DNA from: Gemmatimonadales bacterium
GTDB taxonomy: Bacteria > Gemmatimonadota > Gemmatimonadetes > Gemmatimonadales > GWC2-71-9
NCBI GenBank assembly: GCA_035763805.1
Contig: DASUAL010000077.1
Location: forward strand, 9,461-73,460
Length of the DNA stretch: 64,000 nt
Direction: 5' to 3'
Under the pieces are notes generated by a model. It saw nothing but the letters and a program-made list of their open reading frames with translations, did no database searches and was not told the DNA's origin. Below are positions 12,689 through 15,236 of the stretch, piece by piece. A program made the position numbers and the translations under genes. Position 1 is the first letter of the stretch. The number at the start of each line of letters is the position of its first letter.

Positions 12689-13486
12689 TTACCGGTTCCT
12701 CCCCTGCCTCCGCACGCCCGTCAGCGCCCGCACCGCCTCCGCAGGATCGCTCGTTCGCGCCACCGACGTCCCCACGAGCACGAGGTCCGCGCCTGCCCGG
12801 GCCATGCGTTCGACGTCGGCGCGCGCGGCGATCCCGCTCTCGGCCACCGCCGGGACTGCGTGGGGGACAAGGCTCAGGAGCTGCTCCGCCAGCGCCAGGT
12901 CTACCGCGAACGTCGCGAGGTCGCGGCTATTCACGCCCACGGCCGTGGCCCCGACAGCGAGCGCCTCGTCGAGCTCGCCCGCCGAGTGAACCTCGACGAG
13001 CACGCCCAGTCCCTGGTCCCGCGCGCTGCGCGCCAAGGCCTCAAGCCGCGGGCGCGCGAGGGCTCGCACGATGAGCAACACGGCGCTGGCCCCCGCCGCA
13101 CGAGCTTCGAGGAGCTGGAGCTCGTCGAGGATGAAATCCTTGCGCAGCACGGGTACTGCCACCCTCCGGGCCACCTGCGTCAAGTCCTCGAGCGAGCCGC
13201 CGAAATGCGCCTCATCGGTCAGCACGGAGATCGCGACCGCCCCTCCCCGCTCGTAGCCCAGCGCGTGCGCGACCGGATCGAGATCCTCCCGGATCGCTCC
13301 GGCGGATGGGGAGCGCCGCTTCACTTCCGCGACCACGCCGACCGTGGTGCCGCCCAGCGCCGCGGCAAGTTCACGCGGCGCGGGCGCGGCGGCCGCCGCG
13401 CGCTCGAGCTCTCGGGCCCTCGGCCGGAGCAGCGCCACTCGGTCACGCGTGGCACTCAAGATGGCGTCGATACGACTCGGGGTCAT
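12689..13486 (-). CDS. trpC: Indole-3-glycerol phosphate synthase
   Basis: VVAEVKRRSPSAG, AISVLTD, VLRKDFI, VEVH, GVNSRDL, AESGI, VLVG. Confidence 0.96.
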   Translation of the reverse strand: MTPSRIDAILSATRDRVALLRPRARELERAAAAAPAPRELAAALGGTTVGVVAEVKRRSPSAGAIREDLDPVAHALGYERGGAVAISVLTDEAHFGGSLEDLTQVARRVAVPVLRKDFILDELQLLEARAAGASAVLLIVRALARPRLEALARSARDQGLGVLVEVHSAGELDEALAVGATAVGVNSRDLATFAVDLALAEQLLSLVPHAVPAVAESGIAARADVERMARAGADLVLVGTSVARTSDPAEAVRALTGVRRQGRNR

Positions 13487-13488
13487 CC

Positions 13489-13536
13489 TTGCATTCGGTC
13501 GATTTTCGGGTAGATTATCTTCGGGTTATTTTCGGG
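13489..13536. promoter_or_regulatory. lexA/trpC divergent promoter with two 17-bp direct-repeat sites (candidate SOS boxes)
   Basis: TTCGGTCGATTTTCGGG (13494-13510) and TTCGGGTTATTTTCGGG (13520-13536). TTGCAT(13489)-N16-TAGATT(13511) on the + strand. Confidence 0.55.
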
Positions 13537-13543
13537 AGACCGT

Positions 13544-14152
13544 GTGTCGCTCACTCGCCGCCAGCGCCAAATCCTCGACTTCATCTCCAGCCACATTGCA
13601 GCGAACGGGTACGCCCCGAGCTTCGAGGAGATGGCCCGCCAATTCGGGTTTCGGTCCCTGGCCACTGTCCACGAGCACCTCACCAATCTCGAGCGCAAGG
13701 GCTACATCCGGCGCACCCACAACGAGAGCCGCGCCATCGAAATCGTGCCGCCCAAAGGTCAGACCGGCGCGAGCGAGCTGCCACTCCTCGGTCTCGTCGC
13801 CGCCGGCGAGCCGATCGAGGCGATCAGCGGTGCCGACACCCTTGCCGTGCCCGACGAGCTGATTCCGCGCCGCGGACGGAGCTACGTGCTCAAGGTGCGC
13901 GGGCAGTCGATGATCGACGACCACATCAAGGACGGCGACTTCATCGTAGTGCACGAGCGCAACCAGGCCGACAACGGCCAGACCGTCGTGGCCCTCGTGC
14001 ACGGCGCCAACGCGACCGTGAAGAAGTTCTACCGCGAGCCGGGCGGCTGGATCAGGCTCGAGCCCGCCAACCCTGCCATGAGCCCGTTGCGGGTGAACGA
14101 GCGGGACATCGTCGTACAAGGCGTCGTGGTCGGCGTCATCCGCAAGTACTAG
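13544..14152 (+). CDS. lexA: SOS transcriptional repressor LexA
   Basis: wHTH LTRRQRQILDFI...PSFEEMARQFGFRSLATVHEHL, VAAG cleavage site, catalytic VRGQSM and TVKKF. Confidence 0.96.
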   Translation: MSLTRRQRQILDFISSHIAANGYAPSFEEMARQFGFRSLATVHEHLTNLERKGYIRRTHNESRAIEIVPPKGQTGASELPLLGLVAAGEPIEAISGADTLAVPDELIPRRGRSYVLKVRGQSMIDDHIKDGDFIVVHERNQADNGQTVVALVHGANATVKKFYREPGGWIRLEPANPAMSPLRVNERDIVVQGVVVGVIRKY

Positions 14153-15215
14153 CGCTCGCCGTAGCCCGGCGCAGCCGTTCCAGGGCCTCGTGGGCCGCCC
14201 CGGATTCGAGCACGTCGCGCGCTTGCCGCACGCCGGCATCGTACGAGCGTGCGAGCCCCGCTGCATAGATCGCGGCCCCACCGTTGAGCACGACGGCTGC
14301 CACGCCGAGTGCGTCGCTCTGCCCTCCCGCGAGCAGCCGCTCGATGCGTCCCGCATTGGCGGCCGGCTCCCCGCCAGCGAGCGCGCGCGCGTCCTCCAAC
14401 TCCAGGTCGTAGCGCGCCGGGTCGAGCTCCCAGGTCGTCACACGTCCGGTGCGCACTTCCCACACGTCGGTGATTCCGTGTGGAGAGATCTCATCCATCC
14501 CGATGCGGCCGTGAACGACCAGCGCGTGTTCCGTGCCGAGCCGGGCGAGTGCCTCGGCGACCAGCGGTGCTCGGTCCCCGTCCGCGACGCCTACCACCTG
14601 GCGGCGGACGCCTGCCGGGTTCGCGAGCGGTCCCAGCAGGTTCATGATCGACGGCACAGCGAGCTCTCGCCGGATCGGGCCTGCGTGCTTCATCGCGGGA
14701 TGGAAGGAGGGGGCGAACAGAAACGTGACGGACGCTTCGCTGAGCACGCGCGCCGCCTGGGCGGCGTCGAGGGTGATACGCACTCCGAGCGCCTCGAGGA
14801 CATCCGCCGAACCGCACTTCGAGGTGAAGGAACGGTTGCCGTGCTTCGCGACATGGGCGCCAGCCCCCGCGGCCACGAACGCTGCCGCGGTCGAGATGTT
14901 GAACGTGGAAACCGACCCGCCGCCGGTGCCGCAGGTGTCCACGAGATGGTCGCCCGCGGCCTCCACCCGAACCATGACCGCGCGCAGTGCGCGGGCGGCA
15001 CCCGCCACCTCCTCGGGCGTTTCTCCCTTCACGCGCAGTCCCATCAGCAGGGCGGCGATCTGCGCAGCTGTGGCCTCGCCACGCATCACGGCTCCAAACA
15101 CGTCGGTCGCGTGAGTCTCGCTGAGGGAACGGCGGTTTGCGAGGGCGGCGATCGCCTCGAGCAGCGGCGAAGGTGTGGCGGGCCGGGGGGGTTGGGGGTC
15201 TGGGGCGTCGGGCAT
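14136..15215 (-). CDS. trpD: Anthranilate phosphoribosyltransferase
   Basis: DTCGTGG, FNIST, AKHGNRSFTSKCGSADVLEALG, FHPAMKH, NLLGPLANP, GMDEIS. ATG at 15215 is favoured by the promoter position. Confidence 0.96.
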   Translation of the reverse strand: MPDAPDPQPPRPATPSPLLEAIAALANRRSLSETHATDVFGAVMRGEATAAQIAALLMGLRVKGETPEEVAGAARALRAVMVRVEAAGDHLVDTCGTGGGSVSTFNISTAAAFVAAGAGAHVAKHGNRSFTSKCGSADVLEALGVRITLDAAQAARVLSEASVTFLFAPSFHPAMKHAGPIRRELAVPSIMNLLGPLANPAGVRRQVVGVADGDRAPLVAEALARLGTEHALVVHGRIGMDEISPHGITDVWEVRTGRVTTWELDPARYDLELEDARALAGGEPAANAGRIERLLAGGQSDALGVAAVVLNGGAAIYAAGLARSYDAGVRQARDVLESGAAHEALERLRRATASASTCG

Positions 15216-15236
15216 CGCGGATCTGGGGCTCGCCAA

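Follow-up and report, generated by a model that had tools for sequence, protein, structure and literature searches.

A candidate direct-repeat LexA operator, TTCGG-N6-TTCGG, at the lexA promoter of Gemmatimonadota

Background

Direct repeats of the form GTTC-N7-GTTC are known as LexA targets from Caulobacter and Rhodobacter, and have been reported for Acidobacterium capsulatum as well. This motif is the SOS box of the Alphaproteobacteria (PMC8565304, PMC9578287); 17 LexA motifs have been reported so far (PMC8565304). Another direct repeat, TTACACATATTTTWTACATA, serves as the LexA box of the Balneolaeota (PMC7739468), and the same paper cites a study of Patescibacteria (Sanchez-Osuna, Barbe and Erill, Environ Microbiol 2017) for direct-repeat recognition by the LexA of that group. 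The Cheo box of Gram-positive bacteria has the sequence CGAAC-N4-GTTCG (PMC9578287, Table 1). Among the genes that LexA controls, a COG1533 radical-SAM gene has been placed under SOS control in several phyla (PMC8565304).

The locus described here belongs to a Gemmatimonadales MAG, a soil bacterium (3.31-Mb assembly, 69% G+C, 135 contigs), and the window is the whole stretch of DNA that was analysed, 64,000 nucleotides of contig C77. The gap between lexA and the divergent trpC gene contains two TTCGG-N6-TTCGG repeats, which we judge, with a probability of roughly 90%, to be autoregulatory SOS operators of Gemmatimonadota LexA.

Like the alphaproteobacterial box, the candidate box is a non-palindromic direct repeat with an 11-bp period and a TTC core, and it occupies the core promoters of lexA, recA and imuA/imuB-dnaE2. 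However, its unit is TTCGG, shifted by one base, so that the G before TTC is variable and the GG after it is invariant, and it carries a conserved T two bases ahead of the second unit. Helix 3 of the LexA encoded here (SLATVHEHL) also differs from the alphaproteobacterial helix. The alphaproteobacterial box itself was considered and rejected, as the 47 exact GTTC-N7-GTTC matches of the genome fail to mark SOS genes and none of them is at the recA, lexA or imuB sites. The Gemmatimonadota box is the alphaproteobacterial architecture with a different unit and, although predicted to work in the same way, is a motif of its own.

The Balneolaeota, a phylum related to Gemmatimonadota, offer a second point of comparison. 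There too a direct-repeat LexA motif emerged from comparative genomics, and the regulon likewise comprises lexA, recA, translesion polymerases, a helicase and a radical-SAM protein. The two boxes are nevertheless wholly different in sequence, and the Balneolaeota motif has been validated by EMSA whereas the Gemmatimonadota box is predicted from sequence. The Cheo box resembles ours in that its half-site GTTCG includes TTCG, and Bacillus LexA has a helix 3, STVHGHL, similar to the ATVHEHL of the protein encoded here; but the Cheo box has its half-sites inverted around a 4-bp spacer, whereas the Gemmatimonadota units point in the same direction. A palindromic or Cheo-like reading was rejected: no inverted arrangement is conserved at lexA, and none comes ahead of the direct repeats in the recA upstream regions described below.

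A preliminary description of this DNA suggested that the box might be undescribed. In keeping with this, no published description and no LexA-motif link for Gemmatimonadota was found in the literature searched. Should the consensus of the 2017 Patescibacteria study prove identical, the Gemmatimonadota box would be a known motif in a second phylum.

Results and discussion

Two repeats in the lexA-trpC gap

The features of the locus are as follows (window coordinates).

12689-13486, minus strand: trpC (indole-3-glycerol phosphate synthase), open reading frame matching NF001377 (1e-76), divergent from lexA
13489-13494, plus strand: predicted -35 of lexA, TTGCAT; cTTGc is kept 5' of site 1 in 97 non-redundant relatives
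13494-13509, plus strand: candidate operator site 1, TTCGGTCGATTTTCGG, occupying the whole -35/-10 spacer
13511-13516, plus strand: predicted -10 of lexA, TAGATT; TAnnnT is kept 3' of site 1
13520-13535, plus strand: candidate operator site 2, TTCGGGTTATTTTCGG, over the predicted transcription start
13534-13538, plus strand: likely ribosome-binding site of lexA, GGGAG, read from the sequence, 5 nt before the GTG
13544-14152, plus strand: lexA, 202 aa, matching TIGR00498 (9e-64)
14136-15236, minus strand: trpD, matching TIGR01245 (2e-115), convergent with lexA, its stop codon 17 nt inside lexA

The identities of lexA, trpC, trpB and trpD are backed by NCBIfam. The trpC start codon (13484-13486, minus strand) and the lexA GTG (13544) are separated by 57 bp (13487-13543). 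With both start codons included, the sequence reads CAT CC TTGCA TTCGGTCGATTTTCGGG TAGATT ATC TTCGGGTTATTTTCGGG AGACCGT GTG. The first 17-mer, TTCGGTCGATTTTCGGG, spans 13494-13510 and the second, TTCGGGTTATTTTCGGG, 13520-13536; they are identical at 14 of 17 positions, and each consists of two TTCGG units 11 bp apart. Site 1 lies 7 nt from the trpC ATG. Site 2 begins 3 nt past the -10, and its 3' half extends into the GGGAG ribosome-binding site in this genome. Such a placement of the two sites is classic for a repressor. When the coordinates were re-read, all of them agreed with the preliminary description, which had reported two such 17-bp sites in a 57-bp gap to trpC. Its placement of site 1 in the -35/-10 spacer and of site 2 over the lexA start region is likewise supported, by promoter elements that are conserved among relatives. 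Its wording of the repeat, ATTTTCGGG, needed narrowing, as it fits within this genus only; beyond the genus the general motif is TTCGG-N4-T-N-TTCGG. In close relatives TTCGGGAG is retained ahead of the lexA start codon.

Within the 64-kb window the exact pattern TTCGG-N6-TTCGG has two matches, where shuffles predict 0.16; two matches were reached in 1 of 100 shuffles. Across the whole 3.31-Mb genome there are 15 exact matches, and other spacings of the same units give 6-25. Genome-wide over-representation in this genome was therefore rejected, since 15 falls inside that range. With a raw count this unremarkable, the significance of the pattern must come from the positions of the sites and their conservation, not from their abundance.

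The lexA promoter is conserved around the repeats

We compared 110 lexA loci of relatives, whose LexA proteins are 59-100% identical. An exact TTCGG-N6-TTCGG precedes lexA at least once in every one of the 110, and exactly twice in 100; among 97 non-redundant relatives, 87 have the starts of the two sites 25-27 bp apart. Between the units the bases drift freely and are G+C-rich in many relatives, while the TTCGG units themselves are unchanged. Outside the units, conservation at lexA is confined to cTTGc immediately 5' of site 1, the T two bases ahead of the second unit, and a near-invariant TAnnnT immediately 3' of site 1 (T in 95/97, A in 97/97 and T in 95/97). No further conserved motif was found in the lexA promoters of relatives. 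The promoter spacer measures 16-17 bp and is filled by site 1, and site 2 starts 3-5 bp beyond the -10. In other orders of the class, lexA also has two TTCGG-N6-TTCGG sites in an unchanged layout.

A scan for consensus sigma-70 promoters and terminators on both strands of 13380-13650 gave no match. The lexA promoter went uncalled because TTGCAT matches TTGACA at 3 of 6 positions; as the scan is blind to this promoter, its assignment rests on conservation.

The box at other genes

In this genome, exact sites with A+T-rich spacers in promoter-like positions precede recA (TTCGGTGTATATTCGG, contig C116), imuB, a radical-SAM operon and an RND efflux pump gene. The imuB site is at the end of contig C38, ahead of a gene for an ImuB-type Y-family polymerase (PF00817 match), and the radical-SAM operon with its site, also on C38, consists of a 48-aa zinc-ribbon ORF and a COG1533 radical-SAM gene. 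These promoters combine a TTGC -35 with a TATAT-like -10 about 17 bp downstream, and the spacer of the site is formed by this -10.

The recA upstream regions were also analysed by an unbiased count of all 4-mer pairs, 0-12 bp apart, in 31 such regions. TTCG-N7-TTCG ranked first, being present in 31/31 regions against 0.2 in shuffles. When recA sites were selected on TTCG alone, the second unit was TTCGG in 33/33 and a T stood two bases before it in 30/33; in one family the first unit is TTCGT. The recA site either holds the -10 inside its spacer or is placed between the -35 and the -10.

For the radical-SAM gene, an exact site lies within 300 nt in 29/29 orthologues that have upstream DNA, and many of these have a second site 25 nt off in the opposite orientation. 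The imuB orthologues carry the box as well, and in some relatives imuB comes after the radical-SAM gene. Further carriers in five near-complete genomes include an imuA gene, a UvrD-like helicase gene, a glyoxalase-family gene and the same RND pump gene as in this genome. The box always sits on the core promoter, whether in the spacer or across the -10 or the start. The preliminary description had proposed a lineage-specific direct-repeat SOS box (CCGAA-N6-CCGAA when read on the other strand). That proposal has held up: the box is present at recA and imuB, and it is kept at lexA, recA and the radical-SAM/imuB genes order-wide, so that the motif is anything but absent from recA and other SOS promoters.

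The search for the motif at SOS genes, also proposed there, found the box at recA and the imuB cassette of this genome. In the 400 bp ahead of uvrA (two copies), uvrB, recN, ssb, ruvA and two dinB-like genes there was no site with at most one mismatch. The predicted regulon is therefore small.

Could the repeats instead belong to the promoter, for example as recognition elements for an alternative sigma factor, or have arisen by chance in intergenic DNA rich in T? The N6 spacer does double as a -10 (TATATT) in some promoters, and the genome-wide count is, as noted, unremarkable. However, the box occurs in both orientations, and it is not fixed in place with respect to the -35 and -10; the presence of both orientations at the radical-SAM gene favours a repressor operator over a promoter element. 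Many relatives also have G+C-rich spacers next to invariant TTCGG units, and five near-complete related genomes contain 65 matches to the pattern against 8 for a reversed-pattern control. We regard promoter parts or chance as scarcely credible, and an operator as the far better account of the repeats.

Some candidates were set aside. The helicase gene lhr has a one-mismatch site 12 nt before its ATG, but lhr was rejected as a conserved target, the site being present only here and in one relative. An exact match within a coding region (C41) is not an operator, and encodes a conserved RFGEFSA peptide. The UvrD-like helicase gene, which has its site in one relative, is without a close orthologue in this genome.

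Several features of the neighbourhoods of these genes deserve mention in their own right. The 48-aa zinc-ribbon ORF (CPDCG...CVQCG; C38:53090-53236) lies between the box and the COG1533 radical-SAM gene, which accounts for the box-to-gene distance of about 200 nt, in relatives too. On the same contig, imuB is cut at the contig end by runs of GCGGATT/GTGGATT heptamers (C38:58700-58834), and contig C52 carries its likely dnaE2 partner, about 5 kb away from lhr. A stretch of about 15 kb includes the radical-SAM gene, imuB-dnaE2 and lhr in relatives, an arrangement that resembles a small SOS island.

The RND efflux paralogue has the box TTCGGGATATCTTCGG on its promoter (C50:13407-13422; L263; L264) in 3/3 genomes that possess the paralogue, and it is possible that this pump is damage-inducible. 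In one relative (G159), three paralogous loci (L243, L244, L246) each place an exact box immediately ahead of a small gene (about 95 aa) whose function is not obvious; such genes possibly encode damage-induced small proteins or are part of a mobile element. Near recA, eight relatives (L114, L120, L121, L124, L130, L132, L133, L139) share a second conserved 19-mer, GTGAnnCAAAAtnannCAC, 20-30 nt ahead of the recA start (about 100 nt in L121 and L133). It is absent from this genome, and may be the site of another regulator or an RNA element.

LexA and its covariation with the repeat

The genome has a single clear copy of LexA, a canonical protein that can be aligned from end to end with solved LexA structures, best with that of Thermotoga (3k2z). 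Helix 3 reads SLATVHEHL, and relatives show no variation at the cleavage site A87-G88 or at the catalytic residues S122 and K160.

Helix 3 and the repeat vary together. Throughout the class, LexA proteins with ATVHEHL accompany TTCGG units, whereas in 10 genomes from three families of other classes of the phylum, proteins with ATVHKHL accompany TTCGC units. The TTCGC-type lexA promoters have the same layout: TTGACT, a site, TATAAT and a second site. Glutamate tends toward contact with cytosine and lysine toward contact with guanine, and these preferences would fit the swapped G:C pair at position 5 of the unit. The changed residue is LexA position 44 (Glu vs Lys), which a gap-free alignment places at E. 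coli Glu45, one of the helix III residues that contact DNA (PMC3091678). The covariation of Glu/Lys with G/C probably represents a single evolutionary event, and is to be read as a hint rather than a statistic. In the TTCGC-type lineages examined at recA (L284-L288), there is no TTCGC-type site within 300 nt of that gene, and recA may be outside LexA control there.

These data also bear on whether the repeats are bound by LexA at all. An OmpR/PhoB-type response regulator, or some other DNA-damage regulator, might bind them, and the target of LexA would then be different. OmpR/PhoB-type regulators too bind direct repeats with an 11-bp period, an arrangement typical of winged-helix response regulators. 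Nevertheless, two copies of the repeat stand on the lexA core promoter in nearly all relatives, conservation otherwise extends to recA and the imuB/radical-SAM genes, a DNA-contacting residue of LexA covaries with the fifth base of the repeat, and the lexA promoters have no other conserved motif. We therefore consider a regulator other than LexA very unlikely, and retain LexA as the protein that would recognize the repeats.

A model for LexA autoregulation

The binding of LexA to the repeats, its stoichiometry of one dimer per site and the damage response of the genes are predictions from sequence, and together they suggest the following scheme. In the undamaged cell, one LexA dimer would sit on each 16-bp site. 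With LexA at site 1, in the -35/-10 spacer, and at site 2, over the start and the ribosome-binding site, RNA polymerase would be excluded and lexA would repress itself. The lexA gene of E. coli likewise has two operators. Upon DNA damage, RecA filaments would promote self-cleavage of LexA, whose Ala-Gly site and Ser and Lys residues are all in place, and the sites would be vacated. The vacated sites would then allow lexA, recA, the imuB-dnaE2 mutagenesis genes and the zinc-ribbon/radical-SAM operon to be switched on.

Do the candidate operators also affect trpC?

The position of lexA among tryptophan genes raises the question of whether the sites, besides being LexA operators, also act as a gate on the trp genes, an addition to the reading given above and not a replacement for it. 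Either bound LexA or head-on transcription of induced lexA could modulate trpC-trpB expression. With lexA antisense between its two trp neighbours, trpD and trpC, and 7 nt separating site 1 from the trpC ATG, any transcript reaching trpC has to pass both operators. Conserved divergent gene pairs that include a regulator often mark the targets of that regulator, and here trpC is divergent from lexA in 81/110 related loci and trpD convergent in 79/110. TrpC-like N-termini abut the lexA promoter in 8/13 genomes sampled from other orders of the class, and no terminator-like site was found in 13380-13650. However, the gap has no conserved minus-strand -35/-10 in relatives, and neither strand gave a match in the promoter scan. 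Moreover, relatives in which trpC is not adjacent retain the two-site layout, and the double operator is therefore independent of trpC. On balance a role in trp expression seems unlikely to us, and the more specific proposal, that the operators form a class-wide, damage-sensitive gate (by roadblock or head-on interference) on transcription from trpD to trpC, is more doubtful still. If true, such a gate would couple the SOS response to tryptophan synthesis.

The gene order is of interest by itself. An antisense lexA between trpD and trpC (window 12689-15236; L001-L110, L141-L153) is seen in about 80/110 Gemmatimonadales loci and in several other orders, and this trpD-lexA-trpC synteny is unusually deep for a repressor gene within a biosynthetic operon.

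Conclusions

The two repeats at the Gemmatimonadota lexA promoter would add one more case of direct-repeat recognition by LexA, and the switch from Glu to Lys in helix 3, which goes together with one from G to C in the repeat, is a simple candidate for the determinant of specificity. The binding motif of LexA has changed many times, which is unusual for bacterial regulators, and each new motif enables a phylum-wide prediction of the SOS regulon. Gemmatimonadota are abundant in soil and have few cultured members; the box lets their damage regulon be read from genomes, where it is predicted to comprise lexA, recA, imuB-dnaE2, a radical-SAM repair operon and lineage-specific extras such as the RND efflux pump.
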